A stretch of 38,839 nt of DNA from a virus, in the UHGV virus genome UHGV-1367571; one strand, given 5' to 3'. Below, in pieces: positions 263 to 35,056 of the stretch. Within the stretch, counting starts at the first letter, position 1. Every line of letters starts with the position of its first letter. The position numbers and the translations under genes are program-made. The notes under the pieces are model-generated. The model saw only the letters and a list, made by a program, of their open reading frames with translations, ran no database searches and was not told the origin of the DNA.

Positions 263-1066
263 TTAACCCTCCTTCTTATATTTTTCGCTACTACTGATCG
301 CCTCAACCATTGGAATTATTTCACTTACATCTAGTGGAGGTTTGATAAAGTTTTGATTAATAATGTTAGCCCATTTATAAACTTCATCGTGAGGCATTCG
401 TTGACCTATTAAGAAACCTACTTGTGCAGCTAACCAGTTGTTCCTGTTTCCTTCATCGGCACCTTTTGACCAGTACACCATTTTAGAGGCGATAAATGTC
501 ATAAGATCCCCATTTTCTTGATAGTCCCGAACTGGTTTTTGATATAGTTCCAATAACCATTGGGGAGCCTCAGGGATCTCACTGAATGGAATATCATTAA
601 TAATTTTATAATGTTTTAGTGATCCATGTTCCGTTTCTAATACGCTATCCTCTGCCACCATAAATTGACCGTGATTTCTAAAGTCAACCCCTTTAATCAT
701 ATCAATATTAGGATAAAACTTACTCTCGAACATGTTTTCGGGTAGTTTGTAATAATAGTGTAAACCATCATTAGGGCTTTTAATAGTTCTAGTTTTAGGT
801 AACGTTAGATCATGATTTACTAAAAACTCTTTTAATTCTATAACGCCATCTATTACCTCCCATTTTTTACTCATATGTCTATCAATATCAACACACACTA
901 AACCGCTAACTTTACCAGTAAGGATACCAATATTTCCCTTCCATTTAATTAGATCAGCTAACGAGTCGCCTTGTTTAAATGATCCTTTATAAGCAGGTTT
1001 TTTATTAGTTAACCGCCTCATAGCGATCCCTAGTTTAGCATATTCTAGGATCTTTCTTTTTTCCAA
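263..1066 (-). CDS. bifunctional DNA primase/polymerase (Prim-Pol N-terminal domain with PriCT_1 C-terminal domain)
   Basis: N-terminal GNIGILTGKVSGLVCVDIDRH matches the Prim-Pol catalytic DxD region. The C-terminal GNRNNWLAAQVGFLIGQ resembles PriCT_1. TTG start with RBS AGAGGAGGA. Recognised from memory of the family; no search run. Confidence 0.8.
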   Translation of the reverse strand: MEKRKILEYAKLGIAMRRLTNKKPAYKGSFKQGDSLADLIKWKGNIGILTGKVSGLVCVDIDRHMSKKWEVIDGVIELKEFLVNHDLTLPKTRTIKSPNDGLHYYYKLPENMFESKFYPNIDMIKGVDFRNHGQFMVAEDSVLETEHGSLKHYKIINDIPFSEIPEAPQWLLELYQKPVRDYQENGDLMTFIASKMVYWSKGADEGNRNNWLAAQVGFLIGQRMPHDEVYKWANIINQNFIKPPLDVSEIIPMVEAISSSEKYKKEG

Positions 1067-1068
1067 TA

Positions 1069-1233
1069 TTACTCCTCCTCTTTAATGTTATGTTTACGAA
1101 CGATAATGAATGCCACTACTGCGATCGCAATAACCAAGATAGGTACAGCAAAAACTTTTACCATTGCAATAATAAACGATACTAAAATGATCAATCCGAT
1201 CACTAAACTTAAACTAAATTTTGCAAATCTCAT
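1069..1233 (-). CDS. small two-TM membrane protein of 54 aa. The ORF track extends it to 1272, but the internal ATG at 1233 has the RBS AAGGGAGA.
   Basis: Hydrophobic segments LSLVIGLIILVSFIIAMV and VPILVIAIAVVAFIIV. A good SD sequence lies 8 nt before the ATG at 1233. No SD lies before the ATG at 1272. Confidence 0.5.
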   Translation of the reverse strand: MRFAKFSLSLVIGLIILVSFIIAMVKVFAVPILVIAIAVVAFIIVRKHNIKEEE

Positions 1234-1234
1234 T

Positions 1235-1321
1235 TTAACAATCTCCCTTCTCAAAATAATTAATAACTCCATATGTTAATCCGAAAGCTGCTACCATAAA
1301 TAATAATGTGAATACTGCCAT
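1235..1321 (-). CDS. 28-aa hydrophobic peptide MAVFTLLFMVAAFGLTYGVINYFEKGDC
   Basis: RBS AGAAGGAA lies 8 nt upstream and directly downstream of promoter 1354..1382. The stop codon is followed after 1 nt by the ATG at 1233. Short, so coding status is uncertain. Confidence 0.35.
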   Translation of the reverse strand: MAVFTLLFMVAAFGLTYGVINYFEKGDC

Positions 1322-1353
1322 TTTAAATTCCTTCTTTCTTTTAGTATATATTA

Positions 1354-1382
1354 ATTATAATCTAAGGGGCTGAGTTTGTCAA
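1354..1382 (-). promoter_or_regulatory. sigma-A type early promoter: -35 TTGACA (1377..1382), 17-bp spacer, -10 TATAAT (1354..1359)
   Basis: Consensus hexamers read on the minus strand. The -35 sits inside a GGGG..CCCC inverted repeat followed on the plus strand by a T-run. Confidence 0.7.
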
Positions 1383-1395
1383 CCCCTTTTTTAAC

Positions 1396-1587
1396 TTATT
1401 TTTCTAATTCTTGTTTTTTGATATAAACCAATCTACTTAGCTCTAAGTATTGCTGAGGTGTTAGGTAGTCTGTTTCTCTGATAAAGTCGATCATGTCGAA
1501 AGTGTCTGCGATCTGTTCTAGGGTAGTTACTTCCTCTAATTTGTTAACGATCATTTTCTTATCTGTTGCGAAATTTTTTTCATTCAT
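1396..1587 (-). CDS. hypothetical early protein (63 aa)
   Basis: ORF with RBS AGAGGGAG upstream of the ATG. Own promoter at 1621..1649. Confidence 0.6.
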   Translation of the reverse strand: MNEKNFATDKKMIVNKLEEVTTLEQIADTFDMIDFIRETDYLTPQQYLELSRLVYIKKQELEK

Positions 1588-1620
1588 GTTTATTACTCCC
1601 TCTCTTTATCTTATGTACTT

Positions 1621-1649
1621 AGTATATCATTGGGGGTCGAACTTGTCAA
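1621..1649 (-). promoter_or_regulatory. early promoter: TTGACA, 17-bp spacer, TGaTATACT (extended -10)
   Basis: The same 29-bp module recurs at 8362..8390 (GGGGTCGAACTTGTCAACCCC). Confidence 0.7.
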
Positions 1650-1656
1650 CCCCTTT

Positions 1657-1908
1657 TTAACTTATTTTAAATCTTTTTTCAAATTCTTCAATAAAGGCAG
1701 TTACTACTTCATTTTTTAAGTTTTCTATATGAGTTTCAATTTCTTTTGCTTGTTCTTCTGAAAGTTCTTCTGTTTCGTCCAACTCACTCATTAGGTCGTA
1801 TGCTTGTTCTAAAAATTCGTTTCTTACTGTGTTTTGAGTAGCAGTTACCATATCCATGTTATCGATTGTTAATTCTTTCAATTCGTTTAGTTGGTTTTTG
1901 AAATTCAT
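1657..1908 (-). CDS. hypothetical early protein (83 aa, acidic, helical)
   Basis: ORF with RBS GGAAGGAAG. Promoter at 1942..1970. Confidence 0.6.
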   Translation of the reverse strand: MNFKNQLNELKELTIDNMDMVTATQNTVRNEFLEQAYDLMSELDETEELSEEQAKEIETHIENLKNEVVTAFIEEFEKRFKIS

Positions 1909-1941
1909 ATTAATTACTTCCTTCCCTTAACTTATGAATTA

Positions 1942-1970
1942 AGTATACCATGGAAAAACCAGTCTGTCAA
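1942..1970 (-). promoter_or_regulatory. early promoter TTGACA-17-TGgTATACT
   Basis: Consensus -35 and extended -10 on the minus strand. Confidence 0.65.
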
Positions 1971-1995
1971 CATTTCTTATACATTAATTTAAAAC

Positions 1996-2025
1996 TTGAC
2001 TTTGTAAGCGCTTTCATGGTATAAT
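1996..2025 (+). promoter_or_regulatory. plus-strand promoter TTGACT-18-TGgTATAAT with GTAAGCGCTTtC in the spacer
   Basis: Same architecture as the late promoters at 21719 and 23305. It points away from all neighbouring genes. Confidence 0.55.
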
Positions 2026-2031
2026 AATTTA

Positions 2032-2137
2032 TAGATAGGGGATCTGTTCCCTATCTCCTTCCTCCATTTTTGTTTATACTTTTTCATTCTTCTTTCATTT
2101 CTTTCTTCTGTAGCCCCTCTCGTCAGGGGCTTTTTTA
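2032..2137 (+). ncRNA. candidate small RNA of about 105 nt, defined by promoter 1996..2025 and intrinsic terminator 2112..2137
   Basis: No ORF. Contains the hairpin GATAGGG..CCCTATC, the pyrimidine tract CTCCTTCCTCC (anti-SD-like) and a terminal 7-bp GC stem AGCCCCT/AGGGGCT followed by TTTTTT. Confidence 0.35.
2112..2137 (+). terminator. rho-independent terminator (AGCCCCT-CTCGTC-AGGGGCT followed by T6)
   Basis: Perfect 7-bp GC-rich stem with a U-tract in plus-strand orientation only. Confidence 0.65.
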
Positions 2138-2376
2138 ATACCCTTTTAATAACATATGTTATTTTATAAACAAATAAATAGACTTAGAACCTGAGTTTGT
2201 CCAATGGGGACAATAAACTTTTCTAAGTCTTAATCTATTATATTATGTGAGTTTTGTTTTCTTCGTCGCTCTCACACTAACGACAAGCCACACTGTAGCT
2301 CTTCTTATACTGCACATCATGTGTACAGTTTATTTCGCCGACTTTAAGGAGTTAACGGCTTTCCTTTTATAATTAT

Positions 2377-2406
2377 ATTATACCATAGTAACGGCTTAAA
2401 AATCAA
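2377..2406 (-). promoter_or_regulatory. minus-strand promoter TTGATT-18-TGgTATAAT overlapping the stop of ORF 2396..2647
   Basis: Extended -10 consensus. It would transcribe the ORF-free structured region 2136..2376. Confidence 0.4.
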
Positions 2407-2647
2407 ATTCAATATACTCTTCTTTTAATTGACCCTCTAACTCATCAATCAACCAAGCAAGATAGGTCTGCGCCTTTTTAAGATCCTCAATTCCGTTCTT
2501 TTGTTTGTAACGTAACATATACTTTAATACATTACCATTTAAAAAGCCTTGAAACTCTTCTTGTGTAAATGTATCTTTCATCACCTTAATAGGTTCATGT
2601 TCGCCATTAATAGTATAATGTTTCTGGTTATCGATTAAATTATTCAT
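2396..2647 (-). CDS. hypothetical early protein (83 aa)
   Basis: ORF coupled by ATGA overlap to the upstream ORF 2644..2826. Confidence 0.55.
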   Translation of the reverse strand: MNNLIDNQKHYTINGEHEPIKVMKDTFTQEEFQGFLNGNVLKYMLRYKQKNGIEDLKKAQTYLAWLIDELEGQLKEEYIEFDF

Positions 2648-2826
2648 CTATACTCTCCTTCATATCCTGCTAACAACCACGCTAGCTCATTATTCTCTTT
2701 TTCAATCAACTCGCAGTACTTCTCTAACTGTTCATAATCATCTAATAACTCTTTATGTTCGCTTAACAAATGATTGTACTTGCTCTGGATTGTGTTTAGA
2801 GGCTTGTTCTGATTGTCCCCAACCAT
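2644..2826 (-). CDS. hypothetical acidic helical protein (60 aa)
   Basis: ORF. Weak SD. Overlaps the alternative-frame peptide 2753..2908. Confidence 0.45.
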   Translation of the reverse strand: MVGDNQNKPLNTIQSKYNHLLSEHKELLDDYEQLEKYCELIEKENNELAWLLAGYEGEYR

Positions 2827-2908
2827 TATTGCACACGTCCTTTAATTCGTTTATTTGTGAAAATAAGATCGCCAGTAATGGTATAATCAAAATAATAGAT
2901 AAATACAT
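2753..2908 (-). CDS. 51-aa peptide with N-terminal TM helix (MYLSIILIIPLLAILF...)
   Basis: Strong RBS AAGGAGGTT 6 nt upstream. Promoter 2947..2976 lies directly upstream. Overlaps ORF 2644..2826 in another frame, so only one of the two may be real. Confidence 0.35.
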   Translation of the reverse strand: MYLSIILIIPLLAILFSQINELKDVCNNGWGQSEQASKHNPEQVQSFVKRT

Positions 2909-2946
2909 TCGTATAACCTCCTTTATATTAAATATCTTATAGGTTA

Positions 2947-2976
2947 ATTATACCACACTGTCTAATATTATTGCAA
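2947..2976 (-). promoter_or_regulatory. early promoter TTGCAA-18-TGgTATAAT
   Basis: Extended -10 consensus on the minus strand. Confidence 0.55.
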
Positions 2977-2991
2977 CTATTGGACGTAGTT

Positions 2992-3303
2992 CTAAAGCCC
3001 TACAAGCGGTTTAAATACACTTACTATAACTTTATTAAAGTCGTCCATAGAATGCCGTTCAAGGTCAATAAAGCCCTCTTTAGCTAATTTGGTGCCGTTG
3101 TTCATCGCTGTAATGATTAAATTGTTGTCGATCCGATTGAAAACTACTTCTTGTTTATTTGATGCACCCTTTACTACGATCTCACGAATATCTCCCTTAT
3201 CAAAATCAGTCGCCATTAACATTTGATTATCCGACTCTGCCACAGTATCCTCTACCCATTTATAAACATCTAACATTCTAATCATTATGCTTGCGCCTCC
3301 CAA
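2992..3303 (-). CDS. hypothetical protein (103 aa)
   Basis: ORF in the early operon. Confidence 0.5.
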   Translation of the reverse strand: MGGASIMIRMLDVYKWVEDTVAESDNQMLMATDFDKGDIREIVVKGASNKQEVVFNRIDNNLIITAMNNGTKLAKEGFIDLERHSMDDFNKVIVSVFKPLVGL

Positions 3304-3500
3304 ACCAATAGATCTAATGTTTCAAATGATTTTCTCATTACTTTAATACTGTCTAAATTGTACCCATGTTTTTCTAATAACTCCTGAACCTCTGTAGCCT
3401 CACCATTTTCCCAACCGTATAAAATACCCTCGTTATCCCAACCACCATATATCTCTTGGATCTGTTCGATTGTGAAATTGTCTTTAAATAGTTGTTTCAT
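3285..3500 (-). CDS. hypothetical protein (71 aa)
   Basis: ORF. Adjacent (1-nt gap) to the upstream ORF. Confidence 0.5.
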   Translation of the reverse strand: MKQLFKDNFTIEQIQEIYGGWDNEGILYGWENGEATEVQELLEKHGYNLDSIKVMRKSFETLDLLVWEAQA

Positions 3501-3501
3501 A

Positions 3502-3816
3502 TTATTCCCACCCCTCTAAAATTTCCTTTACTTTTTCCTCTAATTCTTTCGCCTTCCGGTTATTATCTAAGTTTTTAGTAACTGTTGTAACATCAATACC
3601 GCTCAGCCGTTTATATTCTAAAATGATCTCTTTTTGACGATCGTTTAACCCTGCATACATATTTTTCGTTTTGATAAGCTCTACATTTTGCTTTTTCAAT
3701 TCGTCGTTATGTTCTTTATATTTAACGTTATCCGCTGCTAGTGTGTAAACTAAAGCCACGCTTGCTATAATTCCTACTGTGGTCAAAATAAGATCTCCAA
3801 TTACTCTTTTATTCAT
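3502..3816 (-). CDS. hypothetical membrane-anchored coiled-coil protein (104 aa, N-terminal TM)
   Basis: ORF. Start coupled as ATGAATAA with the stop of 3809..3985. Confidence 0.55.
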   Translation of the reverse strand: MNKRVIGDLILTTVGIIASVALVYTLAADNVKYKEHNDELKKQNVELIKTKNMYAGLNDRQKEIILEYKRLSGIDVTTVTKNLDNNRKAKELEEKVKEILEGWE

Positions 3817-3985
3817 TATCCAATTCCTCCAATTTTATTACTTTAATAGTATTCTGATCGTGATACTCTTCCTCGAACTCTGCTGAAAATTTAACATAGG
3901 CAAAAGTGATATTAATTTCAGTTACTAAAAATAGCTCTAAACAACCAGTGTTATTATTCTTTACTTGGATCTCATACAGATTCAT
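3809..3985 (-). CDS. hypothetical protein (58 aa), missed by the ORF track
   Basis: RBS GGAGGA 5 nt upstream of the ATG at 3985. The stop overlaps the next gene start. Translation checked codon by codon against the sequence. Confidence 0.55.
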   Translation of the reverse strand: MNLYEIQVKNNNTGCLELFLVTEINITFAYVKFSAEFEEEYHDQNTIKVIKLEELDNE

Positions 3986-4220
3986 TATTATCCTCCATCA
4001 TTTCCCAATATTTAAGTTTAATATCGTGTGCAGTGGCGGTCATTTCAGATAACCCTAATGTCCCAAATGCCACAACGTACATCGTTTGTAAACCAGTTAC
4101 AAAATCATAATAATCTCGTTCTAATGTCGTTTTAGGGTGTCCTGAAAAGTAATTATCTACTAACACCTCGCAATAATCAGTTACAATCTTTTTAAAAATG
4201 TCTAATTGGTCTTTATTCAT
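3972..4220 (-). CDS. hypothetical protein (82 aa)
   Basis: ORF. 8-nt overlap with the upstream ORF. Confidence 0.55.
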   Translation of the reverse strand: MNKDQLDIFKKIVTDYCEVLVDNYFSGHPKTTLERDYYDFVTGLQTMYVVAFGTLGLSEMTATAHDIKLKYWEMMEDNNESV

Positions 4221-4404
4221 CTAATTCGCCTCGTTTCATGTTCGTATAATGCTGAATGCTAGATCGTACCCGACTCATGTCGCTAATTGTGTTATCGATT
4301 TCTTGTTGGATCTGAGTGCTTTGGTAACGTAAACCTCTTAATCGTCCCTCTAATTCTGATAACTTTAAATTCTCATGTGCAATAACATTGTCAATTAATT
4401 CCAT
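4213..4404 (-). CDS. hypothetical protein (63 aa)
   Basis: ORF with RBS AGAGAGGAAG. Promoter at 4436..4464. Confidence 0.55.
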   Translation of the reverse strand: MELIDNVIAHENLKLSELEGRLRGLRYQSTQIQQEIDNTISDMSRVRSSIQHYTNMKRGELDE

Positions 4405-4435
4405 TCTATTACTTCCTCTCTTTTAATATATTCAT

Positions 4436-4464
4436 ATAATACTATATGTAACTGAGAAAGTCAA
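4436..4464 (-). promoter_or_regulatory. early promoter TTGACT-17-TATTAT with a tandem second TTGACT box 14 bp upstream
   Basis: Element GAGAAAG-TTGACT-N8-TTGACT-TTCTC on the minus strand. Confidence 0.55.
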
Positions 4465-4493
4465 CCCTTTTTAGTCAACTTTCTCAAAATTAT

Positions 4494-4838
4494 TTATTCG
4501 CCTAAATCATAAATCTCTTTATAGATACTACCTAACACCTTACTTACCGCCTCATCAACGAACTCCTTTAATTCTTCTTTAGTGAAGGTTACTCGATTGG
4601 GCTTAATTAATTCTCCGTATACTTCATTAAGTAATGATCCTACACTACAAAAGTCATTATCATCATCGTAAATACCTAACTTACCATCTTCTCGCTTGAA
4701 AATTCTGTAAGTAACCCCTTCAGTGAACCATGCTGAATGATTGTTTTCAGTTACTTTAAAATAATCCCCTTCTTGAAAATCTTCCTCTCTTAAGAAGTCA
4801 ATCTCATACTCGCTCATTATTTTACACTCCCTTTTCAA
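4494..4838 (-). CDS. hypothetical protein (114 aa)
   Basis: ORF. Confidence 0.55.
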   Translation of the reverse strand: MKRECKIMSEYEIDFLREEDFQEGDYFKVTENNHSAWFTEGVTYRIFKREDGKLGIYDDDNDFCSVGSLLNEVYGELIKPNRVTFTKEELKEFVDEAVSKVLGSIYKEIYDLGE

Positions 4839-5211
4839 ATTCTGGCTGCAGGTGATACGATTTCAATACGTCCATATATAACTTGTGTGTTACATGGTGG
4901 TAGTTACTTATACTTTCAAAAATATCACCGAATGTCATATCTGAGTAAATCATTTCATCAATAGCAGCCTTAATCTTTTCATATGTTTCCTGATCATCAT
5001 CGCTAACTGGATACTCTTCCTCTGTGCTACCCATTAAAATGATCTCTAACACATCAATTTCAAACCCTGATTCTTTTTCCAATTTTTTAATAGCGTGTTC
5101 TTCATTAACTGCCATAACTACTCGTTGATACCGTGCTTGTGCCTCTTTGTCCTTGTTGTCAATAAATACCACGTTATAAATTCCTTGCTTTGCCATTTCC
5201 ATTCTAATCAC
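4822..5211 (-). CDS. hypothetical protein (129 aa)
   Basis: ORF. Promoter at 5234..5262. Confidence 0.55.
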   Translation of the reverse strand: MIRMEMAKQGIYNVVFIDNKDKEAQARYQRVVMAVNEEHAIKKLEKESGFEIDVLEIILMGSTEEEYPVSDDDQETYEKIKAAIDEMIYSDMTFGDIFESISNYHHVTHKLYMDVLKSYHLQPEFEKGV

Positions 5212-5233
5212 TTCTTTCTTTTAGTATATATTA

Positions 5234-5262
5234 ATTATAATCCATTAAATTGAGAAAGTCAA
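5234..5262 (-). promoter_or_regulatory. early promoter TTGACT-17-TATAAT with a tandem TTGACT box
   Basis: Near-identical to the 4436 module. The -10 and 5-prime UTR duplicate the 1343..1361 module. Confidence 0.65.
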
Positions 5263-5309
5263 CCATTTTTAGTCAACTTTCTCAAACTTATTTTAGCTTG
5301 TCAATAGTT

Positions 5310-6620
5310 TTACTCAAATTCTTTTAAAGTTTCCAATGTTTTTTCCAATCGGTTCGCTTTTTGTTCTAATTGGAACCCTTGGTTTTCAACTCGTTCGGCT
5401 TTTTCGTATAGATCAGCTGAGGCAGCTCGCAACTCCTTAATTTTATCCTCGATTTTTTCCCGAGTTGTTTTTTCTGGTTCACAGTGTTCTACTGGTTCTT
5501 TAATGTCTGGTTTAGGCACATATTCAAATTGACGTCTTGCCATTAAATATTGGCTACTATCAGATAGACTAATGTTAACATTTCCATTATCAAAAACTTT
5601 AGTCACTCTATAAATATCACCTACTTTGATACCCTGTAAATGATCATCGTATAATAACTGAGTTACTTTTATATACTTATCTTTATTACTTAATTTTGTG
5701 AAATAGTCGACTTCACTAATATATTTAAACTGTACTTTAGTTAGTAGGTAATTTGTATAATCATCATTAAGGAATACTCTTACATCTCCATCTGAATCTG
5801 TTGAGCTTACTTCAAATACATCGCCGATTGACACTCCTTTTTCGACATCACCATATAATAACTCTGTTACTTCCACATATTCTTTTCTCACTTCTTTTTC
5901 CTCCTCTTTTTTGTCAACTAGTTTAAACTGTGCCATACAGATACCATTCAAATATAAGGCGATCTCGTCAGATTTTCTAATACTGTCAGTGTCGCTTTTA
6001 ATAACTAACTCACCTGTAAAATATCTAGTTACAATGTACTTTTTACCTTTAGTCCAGTGAGTAAAACCACCTGTGTTAGTGCATTCTAGTACCATTCCCT
6101 CTTTAATGTCGAACTTAGTGTACTCATCTTTTACGATCTCCAAACTCACATCATAATTATCGATAGGATTGTTTAAATAATGTAAAATATCATTAATATC
6201 TCTGGTTGTTTTACTATCTGTTGAAAGATAAAGATCGCCCTGCTTATTTTTACATACTACATAAACTTTACCTGTAGTCCAAAAACTAAATTCACCATCA
6301 TCTACACAACGTAATTTCATGCCTTCTTTAATATCGTTTTTAGTGTATTTCACTTCTTTTTCCTCCTCTACAATTTCAAGGTGTGCATTACAAACATTTT
6401 TATTATTTAATCTCATTAGAATACCAGTGATATGAGATCGTTCGTTATCATCGCTAGCAATATATAGCGCCCCTTCATTATCTGATTTAACCTCGTAAAT
6501 TTTTCCCACAGTCCACCAATGATAACCTCTAGTATTAACACACCGTAATTTCATGCCCTCTTTAATGTCTTTTTCAGTATATTCCATTATCTTTTCCCTC
6601 CATCTATTAATGTCAAACAT
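5310..6620 (-). CDS. internal-repeat protein (436 aa): three ~75-aa repeats with DIKEGMKLRCV..W.T.GK.Y.V core, two ~58-aa repeats, and a C-terminal coiled coil
   Basis: The repeats are visible in the translation. RBS GGTGGAG. No family recognised. Confidence 0.65.
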   Translation of the reverse strand: MFDINRWREKIMEYTEKDIKEGMKLRCVNTRGYHWWTVGKIYEVKSDNEGALYIASDDNERSHITGILMRLNNKNVCNAHLEIVEEEKEVKYTKNDIKEGMKLRCVDDGEFSFWTTGKVYVVCKNKQGDLYLSTDSKTTRDINDILHYLNNPIDNYDVSLEIVKDEYTKFDIKEGMVLECTNTGGFTHWTKGKKYIVTRYFTGELVIKSDTDSIRKSDEIALYLNGICMAQFKLVDKKEEEKEVRKEYVEVTELLYGDVEKGVSIGDVFEVSSTDSDGDVRVFLNDDYTNYLLTKVQFKYISEVDYFTKLSNKDKYIKVTQLLYDDHLQGIKVGDIYRVTKVFDNGNVNISLSDSSQYLMARRQFEYVPKPDIKEPVEHCEPEKTTREKIEDKIKELRAASADLYEKAERVENQGFQLEQKANRLEKTLETLKEFE

Positions 6621-6663
6621 ACTCCACCTAGCCCCAGTCCCCAGATAATACCTAATATAAATA

Positions 6664-7014
6664 TCACTTATTAAGATCCTCCTTAATCCTTAATAGTTGC
6701 ATAAACTGATCGTACTCAATGGATACCTCATCTTGATTATTGTAACATGTTCTAACTAGTTCGTCAAGTAAATTTTTTACATGTTCTTTAGGATCTGTAG
6801 TAGCTGTAATGTCAACTAATTCCACCTCGACTAATCCGCTTTCTTCAATATATCTAATTAACTCATCTATAGTTTCAGTACACCCTACTTGGTCGCCATC
6901 ATCATCAATTATATAACGTGAAAATGAAAATCTACCTACCTCGATCGGATAAATTTTATCTTCTGTGAAACACCTACTACCTGATCTAGTTACCTCTAAT
7001 CCATACTTTTTCAT
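6664..7014 (-). CDS. hypothetical acidic protein (116 aa)
   Basis: ORF. ATGA coupling with 7011..7172. Confidence 0.55.
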   Translation of the reverse strand: MKKYGLEVTRSGSRCFTEDKIYPIEVGRFSFSRYIIDDDGDQVGCTETIDELIRYIEESGLVEVELVDITATTDPKEHVKNLLDELVRTCYNNQDEVSIEYDQFMQLLRIKEDLNK

Positions 7015-7172
7015 TCCTGTACCTCCTTAACAAGTCTATTTAAAATAGTGTTTAGTTCTGTATACTCTACGATTGTCAATGCGGCGTAACCAGTTTCTAA
7101 TTGCTCCTCTGCGTTTAAAGTAAATACCATGTTAGTATGGCGGATCATATCTAACTTTCTATCATTATTCAT
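7011..7172 (-). CDS. hypothetical protein (53 aa), missed by the ORF track
   Basis: RBS TAAGGAGGTAGAG. The stop TGA overlaps the ATG of 6664..7014. Translation checked codon by codon. Confidence 0.55.
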   Translation of the reverse strand: MNNDRKLDMIRHTNMVFTLNAEEQLETGYAALTIVEYTELNTILNRLVKEVQE

Positions 7173-7173
7173 A

Positions 7174-7377
7174 TTACTCTACCTCCTTAATTGATATAAT
7201 CATGTTTACATTTTGCATTTTTTGGGCGATCTCCCACGCCTCATCTTGATCACTAGCATAAATGTAACCTGTATCATAACGATCGAACCGATCCATAAAT
7301 ACTAATTTATACTGAGCGATCTCATGAGGTCTACTTGCTATATAATGAAACATCACATCGTTAATTCTATCAGCCAA
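7174..7377 (-). CDS. hypothetical protein (67 aa)
   Basis: ORF. Confidence 0.5.
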   Translation of the reverse strand: MADRINDVMFHYIASRPHEIAQYKLVFMDRFDRYDTGYIYASDQDEAWEIAQKMQNVNMIISIKEVE

Positions 7378-7393
7378 TTACTCACCTTCCTTC

Positions 7394-7615
7394 TTACTCG
7401 TTAATAAATGCTAATTCGTCCAACATATCATCTAAAACAGCATATTCTGCTTGTGAGATAAGTTTTTGATCTGCTGCGCCGTCAACAATTCGATCTAGTG
7501 TGTTAACTGTTCCACCGACATAAGTATTAAGGGTACTCTTTTCTGTACCGTTGTTCATCATTCCCATAATATTTTCCTGAGCTGCAATAACCTGACCTTT
7601 TAATAATTCAAACAT
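7394..7615 (-). CDS. hypothetical protein (73 aa)
   Basis: ORF with RBS AAGAAGGAAGGTGAG. Promoter at 7648..7676. Confidence 0.55.
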   Translation of the reverse strand: MFELLKGQVIAAQENIMGMMNNGTEKSTLNTYVGGTVNTLDRIVDGAADQKLISQAEYAVLDDMLDELAFINE

Positions 7616-7647
7616 TTTAAATTCCTTCTTTCTTTTATTATATATTA

Positions 7648-7676
7648 ATTATAATCCAAAGGGCTGAACTTATCAA
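7648..7676 (-). promoter_or_regulatory. early promoter TTGATA-17-TATAAT with a second TTGACT box upstream
   Basis: Shares the -10 and UTR module with the 1354 and 5234 promoters. Confidence 0.6.
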
Positions 7677-7702
7677 CCCTTTTAGTCAACTTTTTTTTAA
7701 TT

Positions 7703-7858
7703 TTATTTTTTCATTGATTCCCAGTCTTTGCGAGTGATAACTTGACCGTTTACTTTTCTTTTTGCAACTTCTACGGCTTCCATAAATGTTTCACGTTCTG
7801 CATAACCTCGTTTAGTTTCACTATTGATAATAATGTATTGTTTTTTAGTTTTTGTCAT
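7703..7858 (-). CDS. hypothetical basic protein (51 aa), missed by the ORF track
   Basis: RBS GAGGAAG. Promoter 7892..7920 lies upstream. This replaces the spurious plus-strand ORF 7742..7975. Confidence 0.55.
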   Translation of the reverse strand: MTKTKKQYIIINSETKRGYAERETFMEAVEVAKRKVNGQVITRKDWESMKK

Positions 7859-7891
7859 GTTTATTACTTCCTCTCTTTATCTTATGAACTA

Positions 7892-7920
7892 AGTATACCA
7901 TGGTTATTTCAGGTTGTCAA
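7892..7920 (-). promoter_or_regulatory. early promoter TTGACA-17-TGgTATACT with a tandem TTGACA box
   Basis: Consensus on the minus strand. Confidence 0.65.
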
Positions 7921-7949
7921 CTGTTTTTGTCAATTATTTTTAAACTTTT

Positions 7950-8147
7950 TCAATGGCGTTCTAAAAATCGATTAAGTGACTCTTTCATTTTATCAATTTG
8001 TATCTGCCGTTCATCTTTTGAAATATTTTCATTAAATAGCCATGTTTTGAACCAACCTTGTTTTGATACATGAACTAAAATGCTGCCTGTTCGTAATGTT
8101 TCGATCTCAATTGTGAAACCATCTTCCACATGTCTTTTAATTTTCAT
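7950..8147 (-). CDS. hypothetical protein (65 aa)
   Basis: ORF with RBS AAGGAGGGAAA. Confidence 0.55.
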   Translation of the reverse strand: MKIKRHVEDGFTIEIETLRTGSILVHVSKQGWFKTWLFNENISKDERQIQIDKMKESLNRFLERH

Positions 8148-8158
8148 TATTTCCCTCC

Positions 8159-8329
8159 TTAAAAGTTGACAATTGTATAATCGTAAAATCTTGGGTTGTG
8201 TCGATCTGTGCAGCTACCGCTAACAATGTGGATCTCAGGGACTTGTTTTAATAACTCTACTGTTTCATCGCTTAGGTTCAGTTCGTAGTTTCTTTTCTTT
8301 TTGTGGTCGATAATTTTTACTTTATTCAT
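8159..8329 (-). CDS. hypothetical protein (56 aa), missed by the ORF track
   Basis: RBS GAGGAAG. Promoter at 8362..8390. Confidence 0.5.
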   Translation of the reverse strand: MNKVKIIDHKKKRNYELNLSDETVELLKQVPEIHIVSGSCTDRHNPRFYDYTIVNF

Positions 8330-8361
8330 GTAATTTCTTCCTCTCTTTATCTTATGTACTT

Positions 8362-8390
8362 AGTATAACCTTAGGGGTCGAACTTGTCAA
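8362..8390 (-). promoter_or_regulatory. early promoter TTGACA-17-TATACT (exact copy of the 1621 module)
   Basis: Sequence identical to 1621..1655. Confidence 0.7.
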
Positions 8391-8414
8391 CCCCTTTTGC
8401 CAACTTTTTGTAAA

Positions 8415-8624
8415 TTATTTTTGTAAATAAACATTTAATTGAACTGAATTGTTTTCGGTTGGTTCAATAGATACCACTTTTTTATGAAAGTATTCCAGTA
8501 CAAATTGTGTGGGTAGGTAACCACTTCTGTACATGAAACTAAAATCATATGAGCGAAAATCATCGCAGTAAATTCTAACCTCAACGCCGTACTCAATAAC
8601 CTCTAATAATTGTTTAAATGTCAT
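8415..8624 (-). CDS. hypothetical protein (69 aa)
   Basis: ORF with RBS GAGAGGAAG. Promoter at 8657..8685. Confidence 0.55.
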   Translation of the reverse strand: MTFKQLLEVIEYGVEVRIYCDDFRSYDFSFMYRSGYLPTQFVLEYFHKKVVSIEPTENNSVQLNVYLQK

Positions 8625-8656
8625 GTAATTTCTTCCTCTCTCTATTTGATATATTA

Positions 8657-8685
8657 ATAATAATCTATAAAAAGAAAAAAGTCAA
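8657..8685 (-). promoter_or_regulatory. early promoter TTGACT-17-TATTAT with a tandem TTGACT box
   Basis: Minus-strand consensus. Confidence 0.55.
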
Positions 8686-8714
8686 CTGTTTTAGTCAACT
8701 TTTTTCAAATTATT

Positions 8715-10472
8715 TTAAAATGTTATTTCTTCATCGGTTAGCAGGTCACTATTTTCTTTTGAAATACCATAGAATACTCGTTTTTTACCTACGTTGGTCG
8801 TTTTTTCCAGATCGCCATTGTTTAATTTATTCCGAATCATTTTGAGATCCAACTCGTTATAAACCAGTTTTCTAAATGAAGCATGTTTCAAAATTTTAGC
8901 CGAGTTATTTTCTGAAAACCATTCTTTAAAGTCCTCATACAGATCGCCACGGTTCACATAATCCTCTTCATTATTAGTAATAGTATAATCTGACTCTAAT
9001 AAAAACTGCTTTACTGGATTATTTTCAGCTTGCCAATCGCCTTTTAATCTAATAGCTATATCTGATTGATACAATGGATCTTGTGTAAATTGTCCGTTTT
9101 TCTCATCATACCATTTATTTCTAGCTGTTTGGATTGCTAAATAGATTAGTTTTCTAAGGTCTGTATCATCGGATCCCAATAATTTTTCTCGGTAGTCGTA
9201 AATTTCTAGTGATTTTTTTTGGTTTTCGGGATCTCTCATATTGTTCTGAAATACTAGCAAATCTAATCGGCGCTCTGTTGCTCCATCTCGTGAGCTTAAT
9301 TGTGGTAATTGGTTAGCGTTTAGCCAAAAATTCGCCTTATTTTGAAACATCATTCCATCACTATATAAGTTCCGTGCTTTTAATTGTGCTTGTCCTGTGA
9401 TTAATTTTTTAAGTGTTTCAATGTTTTCCAGATAGTTGGTTTTTACATCATCATCAAAATTGACTAGGGCGCCAACTAAAGGCATTAATTTTGTATCTGG
9501 GGTTTGGCTTGTAATATCTGCTAACGATACCTCAGCCCACAATGATTTACCTATTGTTTCAAAGCAACGTTTAACGACTAATTGCACCTCTGATTTTCCG
9601 TTACCGTGATCGCTAATGCCTTGTAAAGTGTTCCCTACCGAAACCAAAGCCGATTGAGAAAGACTTGCCTTATTAAAGAATGATAGTCCTAAGAACTCTA
9701 AAAAGGTTCGTTTACTGTCACCTAATAAGAACTCTAACCATTCCTCAAAGGGTTGTTTTTGTTTAATGTCGTATTCTATTGGTGTGTGTTTCAAACGTCC
9801 TAATACATAATCATCACCTTGGGGGGCTTGAAAGCTATTTGTATGAATATTAAATGTTTTTGTAAACGGAATTAAGTATTCTTTTTTACCAATAAAAGGG
9901 TTTTCCTCAGGTGTCACTTGGTTTACTTGTCGTGTGATTGCAGTAATCAACTCGTTTTGTTGCTTAATTGGAATGGTTACCGTTCTTAATAGTGGGTTTA
10001 CAATCGATCCAGTTACAACTTTCTCGGCGGCATCTTTATCTATTTTCCAGATCTTATTTACCTCGTCAAAAATAACCATCTCTATTTCATTGTTACTCAT
10101 TAAGTGACCTTGTTTGGCTATTAAGGATCCTAATAAAGAAACATCATCTATATAAGGGGTATATTCACCTGTTTTTTTATTCTCTCTATATTGTATTACC
10201 TCTGTTTGTCTTAATTCTTTAAATAATTTTTCAGGATAATCTGGTTCTTTAAATGATAAAATACTTGTTTCAAGATTATTTCTTAATTGTTCTTGTTTTT
10301 CTCTATCTAAGTCACCTAGTTCGATTAGTTGTTCTGGAATAGGTTCGGTATTTGGTGTAATCTCCTTTAGTTTTTCGTTTCTGAGGTTTTCTCTAAACTT
10401 TTCCATTTCCTCGGCGCTCATCACTTGGTTATCCGTTGTTAATTCATCTAGTGGGTTTTCAAATTGTTCCAT
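8715..10472 (-). CDS. SF3 helicase, D5/P4-family primase-helicase C-terminal-like protein (585 aa)
   Basis: Walker A GNGKSEV and Walker-B-like NFDDD within a D5_C-like region, recognised from memory. RBS AGGAGGA. Confidence 0.7.
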   Translation of the reverse strand: MEQFENPLDELTTDNQVMSAEEMEKFRENLRNEKLKEITPNTEPIPEQLIELGDLDREKQEQLRNNLETSILSFKEPDYPEKLFKELRQTEVIQYRENKKTGEYTPYIDDVSLLGSLIAKQGHLMSNNEIEMVIFDEVNKIWKIDKDAAEKVVTGSIVNPLLRTVTIPIKQQNELITAITRQVNQVTPEENPFIGKKEYLIPFTKTFNIHTNSFQAPQGDDYVLGRLKHTPIEYDIKQKQPFEEWLEFLLGDSKRTFLEFLGLSFFNKASLSQSALVSVGNTLQGISDHGNGKSEVQLVVKRCFETIGKSLWAEVSLADITSQTPDTKLMPLVGALVNFDDDVKTNYLENIETLKKLITGQAQLKARNLYSDGMMFQNKANFWLNANQLPQLSSRDGATERRLDLLVFQNNMRDPENQKKSLEIYDYREKLLGSDDTDLRKLIYLAIQTARNKWYDEKNGQFTQDPLYQSDIAIRLKGDWQAENNPVKQFLLESDYTITNNEEDYVNRGDLYEDFKEWFSENNSAKILKHASFRKLVYNELDLKMIRNKLNNGDLEKTTNVGKKRVFYGISKENSDLLTDEEITF

Positions 10473-10486
10473 GTGTTACATTCCTC

Positions 10487-10702
10487 CTATTTATCTAATT
10501 TCATATTAATAACTCTAAAATCTGGTTGTTCATACTCACTTATTTTAAAGCCTTTTGACATTCCTTTTTCCAAGTGTCTGTAAAATGTTCGTTTTGATAC
10601 GTTTAATAATTCGCAAGCTTTTTCAACTGTGACAACTAGATCACCTGTATATTTTTCGCCATCTTGGTTTAGAGGACATTCTTCAATTAAGTAAAATTTC
10701 AT
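10487..10702 (-). CDS. small HTH DNA-binding protein, putative early regulator (71 aa)
   Basis: LLNVSKRTFYRHLEKG helix-turn-helix. First gene after the divergent control region. Confidence 0.6.
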   Translation of the reverse strand: MKFYLIEECPLNQDGEKYTGDLVVTVEKACELLNVSKRTFYRHLEKGMSKGFKISEYEQPDFRVINMKLDK

Positions 10703-10734
10703 TATAAAACTTCCTTTCTTTTCGTTATGATCTA

Positions 10735-10764
10735 ACTATATCACATGTCAAAGTAAAATGTCAA
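10735..10764 (-). promoter_or_regulatory. promoter TTGACA-18-TGaTATAGT. The -35 is one of four tandem TTGACA boxes across 10746..10792.
   Basis: Extended -10. Boxes spaced 13, 15 and 13 bp apart. Confidence 0.55.
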
Positions 10765-10861
10765 GTTTTTTCGTGTCAATTTATTTTGTCAATTATTTTG
10801 GCATTCTATTTTGACATGGAATTATTGAAATTTGGCTAAAAAAGGCATTTTCCCCTATTTT

Positions 10862-20075: not shown

Positions 20076-20141
20076 TAGTAAGGGGGCGCTTGTAATGAGT
20101 GTCCCTTTTGTGCTATAATAAATTATAAAGGAGGTAACACT

Positions 20142-34356: not shown

Positions 34357-34382
34357 CTGAATTAGTCAACTTTCTCTAGTAA

Positions 34383-35015: not shown

Positions 35016-35056
35016 TATAATACCTCTTTCATGTTTTTATTTTTTAATACTATTTA

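Follow-up and report, generated by a model that had tools for sequence, protein, structure and literature searches.

The window, the whole 38,839-nt stretch of UHGV virus genome UHGV-1367571, belongs to an Enterococcus-type phage, and its sequence indicates that the leftward arm is driven by a dozen repeated strong promoter cassettes of host type. We consider it likely that the arm is a chain of self-contained early expression cassettes whose hairpins would act on sense read-through RNA. The embedded hairpins most likely stop or dampen read-through on the same strand and not antisense transcription. A cassette arrangement of promoter and hairpin already has precedent in other phages.

The initial annotation had described near-consensus sigma-A promoters recurring along the arm, and our analysis bore this out. 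Minus-strand TTGACA/TTGACT-17/18-TATAAT-like sites have -35 boxes starting at 10764, 8685, 8390, 7920, 7676, 5262, 4464, 2976, 2406, 1970, 1649 and 1382, and the modules are named after these positions (Table 1). In all 12 minus-arm intergenic gaps of at least 69 nt, a sigma-70/sigma-A site in the sense orientation matched at 10/12 or better; when the gaps were dinucleotide-shuffled (500 shuffles), an average of 0.44 of the 12 had such a match, and never more than 3. Matches of at least 11/12 numbered 8 on the arm against 0.36 expected. The predicted leader is constant in 9 modules (25-27 nt) and carries a strong Shine-Dalgarno (SD) sequence. The promoter modules are also kept in many Enterococcus phages, and nucleotide similarity to Efquatrovirus genomes falls mainly in them (21 of 27 and 11 of 14 HSPs). 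Module 8325-8414 was matched by 174 phage records and module 1316-1400 by 88, the latter including Kayvirus terminal-repeat early regions, and the GenBank record of vB_EfaS_LM99 has promoter annotations at equivalent sites.

The bounds first given for the arm, 263-10765, proved too narrow, as synteny with phage A40 and an ORF spanning the window ends revealed that it runs on past 263, from 38839 down to 31921, with two extra promoter modules at 34–35 kb. Between 165 and 10702 the minus strand holds ~28-29 ORFs, three of them large (585, ~425 and 267 aa). The picture of densely packed tiny early genes is supported by the promoter statistics, position, conservation, the LM99 annotation and the experimental mapping of closely similar promoters in Kayvirus, but the arm also carries replication genes, namely a primase, a prim-pol and, in its continuation, a DNA polymerase. 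Thus, it is an early plus replication arm and not a purely early one.

Table 1. Promoter modules and related elements of the window (hairpin coordinates are given in the direction of the minus strand).
Feature	Position	Strand	Promoter	Hairpin or repeat	Leader and remarks
P10764, first leftward promoter	10703..10792	-	-35 TTGACA 10764..10759; 18-nt spacer; TG-extended -10 TATAGT 10740..10735	no hairpin; four direct TTGAC boxes (10792, 10779, 10764, 10751)	predicted leader ~26 nt to ATG at 10702
P8685	8625..8714	-	-35 TTGACT 8685..8680; -10 TATTAT 8662..8657	8706..8674; GAAAAAAGTTGACT-AAAAC-AGTTGACTTTTTTC; -13.6 kcal/mol; then TTTTT on sense strand	
P8390	8330..8414	-	upstream TTGGCA box; -35 8390..8385; -10 TATACT 8367..8362	GGGG-type, 8394..8374; GGGGTTGACAAGTTCGACCCC	family-A leader
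P7920	7859..7949	-	two TTGACA boxes 13 nt apart; TG-extended -10 TATACT 7897..7892	no hairpin	family-A leader; drives g6 (7703-7858)
P7676	7616..7702	-	upstream TTGACT box; -35 TTGATA 7676..7671; -10 TATAAT 7653..7648	7682..7658; AAAGGGTTGATAAGTTCAGCCCTTT; -14.2 kcal/mol	family-B leader
P5262	5203..5309	-	-35 TTGACT 5262..5257; -10 TATAAT 5239..5234	dyad, 5285..5250; TTGAGAAAGTTGACT...GGTTGACTTTCTCAA; -18.6 kcal/mol; genome's most stable 45-nt window	family-B leader
P4464	4405..4493	-	-35 TTGACT 4464..4459; -10 TATTAT 4441..4436	dyad, 4487..4452; -17.6 kcal/mol; without U-tract	
P2976	2909..2991	-	TTGCAA-18-TGgTATAAT	no hairpin	~32-nt leader; AAGGAGG SD
P2406	2371..2406	-	TTGATT-18-TGgTATAAT		drives no ORF
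P1970	1909..1985	-	TTGACA-17-TGgTATACT	no hairpin	family-A-like leader; kept in A40
P1649	1588..1656	-	-35 1649..1644; TG-extended -10 TATACT 1626..1621	GGGG-type, 1653..1633; GGGGTTGACAAGTTCGACCCC	family-A leader
P1382	1322..1395	-	12/12 consensus match; A6 tract upstream	1388..1364; AAGGGGTTGACAAACTCAGCCCCTT; -15.5 kcal/mol	family-B leader
P35086, continuation of the same arm	35016..35088	-	TTGACT-18-TGaTATACT	no hairpin	
P34356	34261..34382	-	-35 TTGACT 34356..34351	dyad, 34377..34345; AGAGAAAGTTGACT-AATTC-AGTTGACTTTCTTT; runs into sense-strand T-run	upstream of DNA polymerase gene
Sole strong plus-strand intergenic promoter in arm	1996..2025	+	TTGACT-18-TGgTATAAT		
Plus-strand transcript unit from that promoter	1996..2137	+		canonical terminator 2112-2137	predicted transcript ~105 nt, ending at the terminator
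Late-arm composite module, one of four	20078..20119	+	-35-like TTGTAA box at 20090		

A stable hairpin containing the -35 box was found in 7 of the 12 arm modules and in 8 of 14 overall, and all 8 fold better as sense RNA (-12.7 to -18.6 kcal/mol) than as antisense RNA (-8.3 to -12.1 kcal/mol). As minus-strand RNA, 7 of the 8 rank at or below the ~1% quantile of genome windows, with P8685 at 3%, whereas as plus-strand RNA they reach only the 1.4-21% quantile. Most of the top 25 genome windows for minus-strand RNA are these hairpins, and the most stable minus-strand 45-nt windows of the genome comprise the module hairpins and two conventional terminators. In an alignment of 18 distinct dyad copies, 94.1% of cells were paired compared with 85.2% after shuffling, a value that 0 of 500 shuffles reached; 7 pairs had changed on both sides, slid registers paired only 36-62%, and U·G and G·U at the centre of the stem were invariant. 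Covariation extends to the outer stems of the GGGG type (GGGG/CCCC, GGGC/GCCC, AGGG/CCCT, ACCC/GGGT and GCGG/CCGC). Because the stems covary across phages, the comparison of sequences indicates that the module hairpins are real structures and that their pairing is selected.

In most Efquatrovirus copies, a sense-strand run of six to eight T comes after the hairpin, and a sense-strand T-run follows two of the window copies (P8685 and P34356). The sense-strand U-tract is absent at P1649, P8390 and P4464 and poor at three more, which leaves only 2 of the 8 as predicted canonical intrinsic terminators. The hairpin of P8685, which lies after the primase gene and has the -35 box as its 3' arm, takes the form of a canonical sense terminator, and a consensus terminator scan reported it as a minus-strand terminator-like site.

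Six promoters had been credited with a second TTGACT box in a GAGAAAG-type dyad. Extra TTGAC boxes do occur 12-15 nt upstream at P8685, P7676, P5262, P4464 and P7920, with TTGGCA at P8390, but the full flanked dyad is restricted to three arm modules (with GAGAAAG twice and GAAAAAAG once); a fourth, at 34345-34377, lies outside the region first described. Among 115 promoters, 13 had an upstream TTGAC box (7 of these 13 belong to the window), and 10 of the 13 boxes are hairpin arms, which argues against a second promoter element. The duplicated boxes of P7920 and P10764 are not within hairpins. In most cases, the duplicated -35 is better explained as one half of a stem, in which the extra box forms the 5' arm and the functional -35 the 3' arm.

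In the mechanism that we propose, each minus-strand cassette opens with an A-rich, UP-like tract directly after the upstream stop codon, followed in 7 of 12 by the hairpin, then by a 17-18 bp spacer, a -10 box that is often TG-extended, a ~26-nt predicted leader of one of two families with a strong SD, and one to six ORFs, mostly tiny. Host sigma-A RNA polymerase would start at each cassette, an expectation derived from the promoter sequences and backed, by analogy, by experimental work on other phages whose designs are nearly identical. The hairpins would act on sense-strand RNA reading through from the upstream cassette: those with a U-tract, P8685 and P34356, as intrinsic terminators, and the rest as leaky attenuators and/or protective 3' ends. 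In either case, the expression of a unit would be set mainly by its own promoter. Where the box is doubled, the 5' arm GTTGAC would pair with the second GTTGAC via U·G and G·U, so that the stem would form well only in sense RNA and the opposite strand would gain no -35 box.

Comparable designs are known. In T4-type phages, the promoter-early stem-loop (PeSL) cassettes (Arbiol et al. 2010, PMC2839356; Comeau et al. 2014, PMC4122927) resemble the window modules: both have a strong sigma-70-type early promoter whose -35 is preceded by AT-rich sequence, a stable and often polyG/polyC stem-loop overlapping the promoter, and an SD and start codon at the 3' end. In both, ~100 bp of conserved sequence is repeated many times, mainly flanking small ORFans in variable regions, at the boundaries of insertions, deletions and replacements between related phages. 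However, there is no sequence homology, and the window comes from an Enterococcus siphophage with a Gram-positive sigma-A host. In addition, the PeSL stem lies mostly between -35 and -10 or over the -10, whereas the window stem usually holds the -35 itself, in the 5' arm in the GGGG type and in the 3' arm in the dyad type. For PeSLs, experiments have demonstrated terminator activity, toxic promoter strength and the formation of mini-circles.

Parallels also come from Staphylococcus Kayvirus, whose early promoters (consensus TTGACW-17-TRTGnTATANT) were mapped by RNA-seq in vB_SauM-515A1 (PMC7698491, Tables S2 and S3). Its terminators t194, t204, t69, t165, t174, t198 and t129 lie on the same strand as their paired promoters and contain the -35 of p195, p205, p68, p166, p175, p199 and p130, respectively; t198 has a duplicated TTGACA, and t11 is a GCGG-TTGA...CCGC hairpin without a U-tract (PMC7698491). 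As in the window, many early promoters stand ahead of small genes, and there are same-strand hairpins containing the -35 of the next promoter; in t165/p166 and t174/p175 the -35 is in the 3' arm, as in the window dyads. Modules of the terminal repeat (the 'Tre' early region) of Stab20 match window 1316-1400 at ~85% over 73-79 nt and have the A-tract, GGGG hairpin, -10 and short leader in common with it. Kayvirus phages differ in being Herelleviridae myophages of 140 kb that have long terminal repeats and late promoters specific to the phage; their -35 is often in the loop, while Enterococcus-phage copies are characterised by the U·G/G·U direct-repeat dyad flanked by A/G-rich sequence. SPO1's host-takeover module likewise has small early genes clustered in a number of short operons, whose promoters and ribosome-binding sites are of the kind seen at highly expressed genes, but it is part of a large myophage's terminal redundancy and no homologous genes were detected. 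The early arms of Efquatrovirus (e.g., vB_EfaS_LM99, Ef6.1 and KEN07) carry the same module families along the equivalent arm, GGGG-TTGACAAGTTCAGCCCC and AAAGAAAGTTGACT-N-AGTTGACTTTCTTTTTTT, although the genes between the modules are mostly unrelated. Among the loci compared, the window has the highest density of hairpin modules.

Several modules had been regarded as exact duplicates; the copies are in fact chimeric and 64-92% identical. P1649 and P8390 share 92% identity over 66 nt (longest exact block 28 nt), and P1382, P5262 and P7676 share 64-81% over 99 nt (exact blocks of 20-32 nt). Because the copies are this alike, the cassettes are probably also joints for recombination that would insert, delete or swap ORFan units, the least secure step of our proposal. 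The modules sit at ORFan-unit bounds and homology breakpoints. Compared with A40, ORFans are carried by the module-bounded units P8685, P8390, P7676, P5262, P1970 and P1649; the window has two additional units of ORFan and module, while A40 passes directly from a P1970-like module to the g25 homologue. Synteny with A40 picks up again downstream of P4464. The P7920 unit matches Efquatrovirus phages and podophage Ef6.2 gp01 at 96-98% in protein and 88% in DNA, promoter included. Some gene replacements relative to A40 lie inside operons at a joint without a module (e.g., 3285-3500), so joints other than the modules also exist. Similarity across genera (80-85% over ~75 nt) could partly reflect convergence on the promoter, UP and SD consensus. 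P2406 is followed by ~270 nt of conserved, structured non-coding sequence.

The placement of four -35 boxes inside GGG(G)...CCC(C) inverted repeats with a plus-strand T-run, reported in the initial annotation, was confirmed at P1382, P1649, P8390 and P7676. It had been taken to mean that these sites terminate antisense transcription; as intrinsic terminators they would shield the arm from convergent or spurious transcripts, and in a weaker form of this reading they would be bidirectional. We regard this as unlikely, and as the main function it is not supported: the sense RNA is the more stable in all eight hairpins, and the consensus terminator scan reports none of the four sites on the plus strand. 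The plus strand does read as a hairpin plus T4-T6 in all four, a better U-tract than on the sense strand, and copies from Kayvirus and elsewhere repeat this shape, with the sense-strand A-rich tract abutting the stem on its 5' side; moreover, roughly half of the distinct variants of the GGGG type form perfect palindromes, which fold equally well on both strands. Nevertheless, when read on the plus strand, each of the four window copies contains a C·A mismatch, and the stems there reach only -6.1 to -8.6 kcal/mol compared with -11.3 to -12.0 kcal/mol on the sense strand, and the plus-strand RNAs fall at the 1.4-7% quantile (GGG(G) type) or 8-21% (dyad type), the T-run of the dyad type being on the sense strand. 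Sense-only wobbles in the GGGG subtype (17 vs 4) are no more than the chance 3:1 from the fixed TTGA arm. The longest upstream A-run averages 4.5 nt at hairpin promoters vs 3.3 nt, but the A-rich tract, which gives the plus-strand T-run when read across, is general to these promoters, with an A fraction of 0.51 at those without a hairpin against a background of 0.33-0.39. This tract would fit the E. coli UP-element proximal subsite consensus AAAAAARNR. A strong terminator at 31858-31902 closes the late operon, no strong (at least 11/12) intergenic plus-strand promoter besides that at 1996..2025 feeds into the arm, and transcription from that one has a conventional terminator of its own.

It is improbable that the dyads and/or direct TTGAC repeats are DNA operators at which a phage-encoded regulator, by covering the -35, would switch off the early promoters or set their timing. 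The first gene (10487-10702) encodes a candidate, an HTH-like protein of 71 aa whose weak HTH_17 match (E = 2e-5, 25.2 bits) stays under Pfam's cutoff of 27. P10764 lies in a 21-nt inverted repeat with 86% complementarity (10744-10764 and 10798-10818), where four to six boxes resemble TTGACA and the RNA forms no hairpin, P7920 has its second box without a hairpin, and (A)GTTGAC(T) is the constant part of all dyads. The flanking arms, on the other hand, vary within the genome (GAGAAAG, GAAAAAAG, AGAGAAAG, GGGG and AGGG) yet stay complementary, and they covary across phages, which marks them as parts of a structure and not as the recognition sequence of a single protein; the loop length also ranges from 3 to 8 nt. 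Equally doubtful is the idea that the hairpins have no transcriptional role, being either by-products of cassette spread (recombination or replication-slippage scars, or cruciform-prone sites for a recombinase or endonuclease) or purely stabilisers of mRNA 3' ends or RNase processing sites. The chimeric modules at homology breakpoints, the T4-type PeSL crossover points mapped in or beside the stem-loop and the missing U-tract at several hairpins would all suit it, but covariation shows selected pairing, many copies have canonical sense U-tracts, and drops in RNA-seq coverage coincide with the equivalent Kayvirus hairpins. A stabilising or processing role is compatible with the reading that we prefer, hairpins acting on sense read-through RNA, and is partly within it.

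The late arm offers a further view of the design. Its four composite modules, with -35-like TTGTAA boxes starting at 14219, 20090, 26439 and 30209, place a G-rich hairpin, its loop being TTGTAAT, a short way upstream of a TG-extended TATAAT, and the hairpin is followed by 4-6 T on the plus (sense) strand at 20090, 26439 and 30209 but not at 14219. Thus, the combination of hairpin and promoter occurs there in the sense orientation too.

The minus-strand early arm is densely supplied with promoters. Using a criterion of TTGACA and TATAAT hexamers placed 16-18 bp apart, upstream of genes and in the same orientation as those genes, we found that all 12 of the arm's intergenic gaps of at least 69 nt contained a sense-oriented sigma-70/sigma-A match of at least 10/12 with a 17-18 bp spacer, whereas dinucleotide-shuffled gaps gave a mean of 0.44 matches of 12 and a maximum of 3 in 500 shuffles. 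Eight matches reached at least 11/12, against 0.36 expected, and a consensus scan placed almost all of the high-scoring sigma-70-type sites of the arm on the minus strand. These results support the dense, promoter-driven early arm that the initial annotation had described. Nine modules have a predicted leader of 25-27 nt between start site and start codon, and equivalent sites have already been annotated as promoters in the GenBank record of the Efquatrovirus phage LM99. By analogy with the mapped early promoters of Kayvirus, which show the same consensus, the modules would be sites of initiation by the host RNA polymerase holoenzyme; in the literature searched, no mapping of transcription start or termination sites was found for Efquatrovirus-like Enterococcus phages.

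The arm extends across the window ends and carries two more modules (35086 and 34356) in that extension. A 108-aa minus-strand ORF crosses the junction of the window ends (38686-38839 joined to 1-114), and synteny with the E. cecorum phage vB_CECAV_A40 (A40) is unbroken there; thus, the arm runs from 10702 to 1 and then from 38839 to 31921, and the window looks like a complete, circularly permuted genome representation. The window (38,839 bp, 35% G+C) is related to the Enterococcus siphophages, and its nearest relative in the phage collection is A40, which shares its gene order and shows 76% identity over only 13% of the first 12 kb (megablast). Among the many tiny ORFs of the arm lie genes for a primase, a prim-pol and a DNA polymerase; the structural and lysis genes are found between 11.2 and 31.9 kb on the plus strand. 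When 20 small ORFs were scanned against Pfam, only DUF3310 (2396-2647) and a sub-threshold HTH in the first gene were detected, and nothing meaningful was returned by the tRNA scan or by Rfam (gathering thresholds for the whole window, E-value mode for 1900-2420). In addition, in the region 5310-6588, 6664-7014 and 4494-4817, a protein of about 425 aa possesses three stretches matching phrog_3523 (unknown function), which two smaller neighbouring ORFs also match, giving a small paralogous family in the arm.

The modules, named here by the start position of the -35 hexamer, had been described as including exact duplicates, but they proved to be related rather than exact: P1649 and P8390 show 92% identity over 66 nt, and P1382, P7676 and P5262 are 64-81% identical over 99 nt. 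They form two leader families with exact common blocks of 16-32 nt in visibly chimeric combinations. All of the duplicated TTGAC boxes were recovered, as were the four GGG(G)...CCC(C) repeats and their plus-strand T-runs, and the earlier observation was largely correct and far beyond chance. An upstream second TTGAC box occurred at 13 of 115 promoters (nine loci), where about one was expected, and formed a hairpin arm in 10 of the 13. Tandem promoters were rejected on inspection of the sequence: no -10 lies 16-18 bp from the upstream TTGACT. The UP element, the contact site of alpha-CTD, is A/T-rich and extends from about -38 to -59, and its proximal subsite has the consensus AAAAAARNR in E. 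coli. P1382 and P1649 carry AAAAAAGGG or AAAAAGGGG directly upstream of the -35, a putative tract of this kind, and the A fraction in the 10 nt upstream of the -35 was 0.51-0.60 over the 115 promoters, against a background of 0.33-0.39.

A stem-loop is present in 7 of the 12 arm modules and in 8 of 14 overall, either as a dyad built on two TTGACT boxes (P8685, P5262, P4464 and P34356) or as a GGGG or GGG(G) type (P1382, P1649, P8390 and P7676). All eight fold more stably as minus-strand, that is sense, RNA (-12.7 to -18.6 kcal/mol) than as plus-strand RNA (-8.3 to -12.1 kcal/mol), and at the imperfect stem positions a sense-strand G·U corresponds to C·A on the opposite strand. Together with the terminators at 31.86 kb (convergent) and 2.1 kb, these sites are the most stable minus-strand 45-nt windows of the genome; as plus-strand RNA, the same sites fall at the 1.4-21% quantile of 45-nt windows genome-wide. 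To collect copies of the double-TTGACT dyad, we searched contigs of other phages with patterns that placed no constraint on the outer stem. In the alignment of 18 distinct copies, 94.1% of the cells were paired, compared with 85.2% in column shuffles (none of 500 reached 94.1%), and pairing was 36-62% in every slid register. Seven pairs have changed on both sides, with arms such as GAGAAAG/CTTTCTC, CAGAAAG/CTTTCTG, AAAGAAAG/CTTTCTTT, GAAAAAAG/CTTTTTTC and AAGAAAAG/CTTTTCTT, and the central two pairs, U·G and G·U, are invariant. The GGGG-type stems covary too (GGGG/CCCC, GGGC/GCCC, AGGG/CCCT, ACCC/GGGT and GCGG/CCGC). The covariation, the invariant U·G and G·U pairs and the T-runs on the sense strand therefore indicate that the "second -35" is the 5' arm of a sense-strand terminator-like hairpin, the 3' arm of which is the functional -35. 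Results from the AT-rich family-B patterns, which pulled in many unrelated contigs, were filtered before use. At 702 promoter-like IMG/VR sites, a looser hairpin criterion yielded mostly AT-rich chance stems whose free positions lacked strand bias, and a GC-clamped set took its place.

To define a sense terminator, we required a stable G+C-containing stem-loop with a U-tract immediately after it, located behind a gene. P8685 (8706..8674 followed by TTTTT) and P34356 show all of these features and P7676, P5262 and P1382 some of them, while P1649, P8390 and P4464 have no sense-strand U-tract. Most Efquatrovirus copies of the dyad are followed by a T-run on the sense strand. The evidence favours action of the dyad type on the sense strand, and the strand on which the GGGG type acts is less clear. 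The initial annotation had interpreted these GGGG-type hairpins as terminators of antisense transcription. Their U-tract is indeed better on the plus strand, where it is present at all four GGG(G) sites, and perfect palindromes make up about half of the distinct variants. However, a C·A mismatch breaks the plus-strand stem in all four GGG(G) copies of the window (-6.1 to -8.6 kcal/mol), the plus-strand consensus terminator scan reports none of the four, and the dyad-type sites have no plus-strand U-tract. Moreover, the A-tract that reads as a plus-strand T-run is a general promoter feature, with an A fraction of 0.51 even where there is no hairpin against the same background range. P1996 (1996..2025), the only strong (at least 11/12) intergenic plus-strand promoter in the arm, has a canonical terminator of its own, and the late operon stops at a strong terminator. 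Antisense or bidirectional termination by the GGGG subtype seems unlikely to us. The wobble count of the GGGG type (17 sense-only versus 4 antisense-only) was dropped as strand evidence because the fixed TTGA arm alone predicts a ratio of about 3:1. In annotation, caution is due with hairpins beside promoters when the T-run is on the non-coding strand, as such a pair may be a UP-like A-tract adjoining a sense-strand structure. A strong hairpin at 31858-31902, between the convergent lysis and DNA polymerase genes, is flanked by an A-run and, on its other side, a T-run; folding at -15.7 kcal/mol as plus-strand and -18.5 kcal/mol as minus-strand RNA, it probably terminates transcription in both directions.

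Two independent lines of evidence, from the late-arm modules and from the terminators of Staphylococcus Kayvirus 515A1, support action on the sense strand. In the late arm, a TG-extended TATAAT is closely preceded by a G-rich hairpin with TTGTAAT as its loop, a hairpin-plus-promoter design on the arm's own sense strand, and these modules are possibly middle or late promoter-terminator cassettes. In Kayvirus vB_SauM-515A1, the terminators detected by RNA-seq lie on the same strand as the next early promoter, the -35 of which they contain, as in the pairs t194/p195, t204/p205, t69/p68, t165/p166, t174/p175 and t129/p130; the pair t198/p199 has a duplicated TTGACA, and t11 is a GCGG-TTGA...CCGC hairpin without a U-tract (PMC7698491). 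In addition, a study of a Listeria P100-like phage (CKA15) reported efficient termination at terminal-repeat sites which ARNold does not call as intrinsic terminators; such sites might correspond to hairpins of the GGG(G)-promoter kind.

Possible late-arm promoter modules with an associated hairpin
Module	Coordinates	Strand	Location	Sequence after the hairpin
TTGTAA-18-TGnTATAAT	14219-14248	+	intergenic	no T-run
TTGTAA-18-TGnTATAAT	20090-20119	+	intergenic	run of 4-6 T
TTGTAA-18-TGnTATAAT	26439-26468	+	intergenic	run of 4-6 T
TTGTAA-18-TGnTATAAT	30209-30238	+	intergenic	run of 4-6 T

In comparisons with other genomes, the modules lie at borders of units that vary between relatives. When the arm was aligned with two Efquatrovirus genomes, 21/27 and 11/14 of the nucleotide HSPs joined module to module, many to many. 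The main exception was the unit 7688-7954 (module P7920 and g6), whose gene (7703-7858, 51 aa, no family match) shows 96-98% protein and 85-88% DNA identity in Efquatrovirus siphophages. The same unit is gp01, the first gene, of the podophage vB_EfaP_Ef6.2 (88% DNA, 98% protein identity) and is missing from the closest relative, A40. Homology begins within the P7920 module, at its -35 (7920) in the comparison with Ef6.2 and at the stop codon of the upstream gene (7949-7954) in that with the Efquatrovirus genomes, and it stops at the start of the next hairpin. The units behind P8685, P8390, P7676, P5262, P1970 and P1649 are ORFans relative to A40; in A40, a P1970-like module leads directly to the g25 homologue, while the window has two extra units there, each an ORFan with a module. 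Units that are ORFan or horizontally acquired are module-bounded, but some replacements lie inside operons at a joint without a module, such as 3285-3500. The gene at 3285-3500, in an operon otherwise syntenic with A40, is absent from A40 and has 87% protein identity to a gene of the Efquatrovirus phage Ef6.1.

The modules are also widely distributed among phages. By blastn, module 8325-8414 matched 174 phage records, 119 of them from Enterococcus (siphophages, EF24C/EFLK1-type myophages and Copernicusvirus podophages) and 54 from Listeria P100-like phages, where the annotated ones among the matches listed fall in the repeat region. Module 1316-1400 matched 88 records, of which 54 were from Staphylococcus; the Staphylococcus genomes among the matches listed measure ~132-154 kb, and in the one inspected, Kayvirus Stab20, the match falls in the terminal-repeat "Tre" region. 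The Bacillus (36-48 nt, E about 1e-4) and Klebsiella matches to module 1316-1400 were too short or marginal to be counted as relatives. Most early promoters in the large myophage loci that we examined have no hairpin and the matching copy alone has one, which hints at transfer of the hairpin-bearing cassette, although the similarity of the myophage modules may reflect convergence on the promoter, UP and SD consensus. A single copy of a hairpin-promoter nearly matching that of the window, GGG(G)TTGACAAGTTCA(A/G)CCC(C), was observed in Listeria phage VEfB7 (L007, locus 6008) and another in EF24C-P2 (L009, locus 6018).

The arrangement as a whole is of a known type, combining the multi-promoter early regions of lytic Firmicutes phages with composite promoter-terminator cassettes such as those of Kayvirus and the promoter-early stem-loops (PeSLs) of T4-type phages. 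In PeSLs, a sigma-70 early promoter is combined with an AT-rich tract, a stem-loop of polyG/polyC and an SD, and these cassettes have been demonstrated to attenuate transcription and to recombine (PMC2839356, PMC4122927). Like them, the window's modules place a promoter, an AT-rich tract, a stem-loop and an SD with start codon within about 100 bp, are repeated many times, and are tied to ORFans in variable regions at the boundaries of indels and replacements, though not every replacement is module-bounded. Unlike them, they have no sequence relation to PeSLs: the blastn matches of two modules came from Enterococcus, Listeria, Staphylococcus and Bacillus phages and two Klebsiella jumbo-phage records, with none in T4-type phages. 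The element is therefore an analogue and not a family member, and no description of a PeSL-type element was found for Gram-positive phages in the literature searched. The mechanism of the cassettes is one that we infer: in the light of the Kayvirus RNA-seq data and the chimeric modules, they would terminate or attenuate transcription and recombine as PeSLs do. A detail of moderate interest is that a direct repeat of the -35 hexamer supplies the stem of the putative terminator. Should this model of promoter cassettes with sense-acting hairpins hold, each tiny early gene or mini-operon would be an insulated, portable unit with its own strong promoter, leader and upstream terminator, which would explain how lytic Enterococcus phages swap host-takeover or anti-defence ORFans between very different types of phage while keeping expression correct, and would offer compact, strand-specific promoter-terminator parts for the engineering of Gram-positive hosts.

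A joint reading, which we regard as possible but doubtful, would unite a mobile pool of Firmicutes-phage cassettes, a sense-only terminator fused to the promoter, and active ORFan shuffling. The pool would be a Gram-positive counterpart of PeSLs, exchanged among the sipho-, myo- and podophages of Enterococcus and related to cassettes found in Herelleviridae of Listeria and Staphylococcus; the directly repeated -35 would pair through U·G and G·U in sense RNA only and would thus make a strand-specific terminator fused to the promoter; and the ORFans would be shuffled by homologous recombination.

The hairpin dyads and TTGAC boxes might instead be operators for a regulator. Against this role, the arms vary from site to site in the window (GAGAAAG, GAAAAAAG, AGAGAAAG, GGGG and AGGG, with only the TTGAC core constant) and covary between genomes, and the window does not show the same half-site at all promoters, as would be expected of a palindromic operator for a dimeric repressor. 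At P10764, regulation is plausible, since the first gene has a sub-threshold HTH_17 match (E = 2e-5) and this promoter lies in a 21-nt inverted repeat of TTGACA boxes without an RNA hairpin; overall, we consider an operator role very unlikely. Equally improbable in our judgement is that the hairpins serve purely in recombination or purely in stabilising RNA ends. The product of the first gene (10487-10702, 71 aa) shows 53% identity to A40 gp059 and is possibly an early regulator. The inverted repeat (10744-10818, 86% complementarity, TTGACA-like boxes) flanks the first leftward promoter, and just past it, between the divergent arms, a stretch of 294 bp (10861-11160) holds 8 of the 17 TTGGGAR motifs in the genome (TTTTTGGGAG / CTCCCAAAAA, both orientations). 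The two regions are a candidate for a regulator-binding, origin or packaging region.

Two elements near 2 kb may be non-coding. P2406 (2406..2377, minus strand) has no ORF behind it but is followed by ~270 nt of strongly structured RNA (window 2085-2372; -71.7 kcal/mol, z = -5.35), the core of which is 94.7% identical to A40 over 226 nt, with ~170 nt at 100%, while the flanking genes are at ~70%. The structured region, for which Rfam gave no match, may be a conserved non-coding RNA, a replication origin or an element acquired by recent transfer. On the plus strand (1996-2139), a divergent promoter, TTGACT-18-TGgTATAAT, has its -35 and -10 kept in A40. The predicted P1996 RNA (~105 nt, 2032-2139) comprises a 5' hairpin, an unpaired CU-rich stretch of ~55 nt and a canonical terminator (z = -4.56). 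Its CU-rich part holds the anti-SD-like CUCCUUCCUCC, with CUUCCUCCAUUUU kept in A40, and this RNA could base-pair with the repeated early leaders at their GAGGAAG SDs, or work as an antisense RNA in cis.
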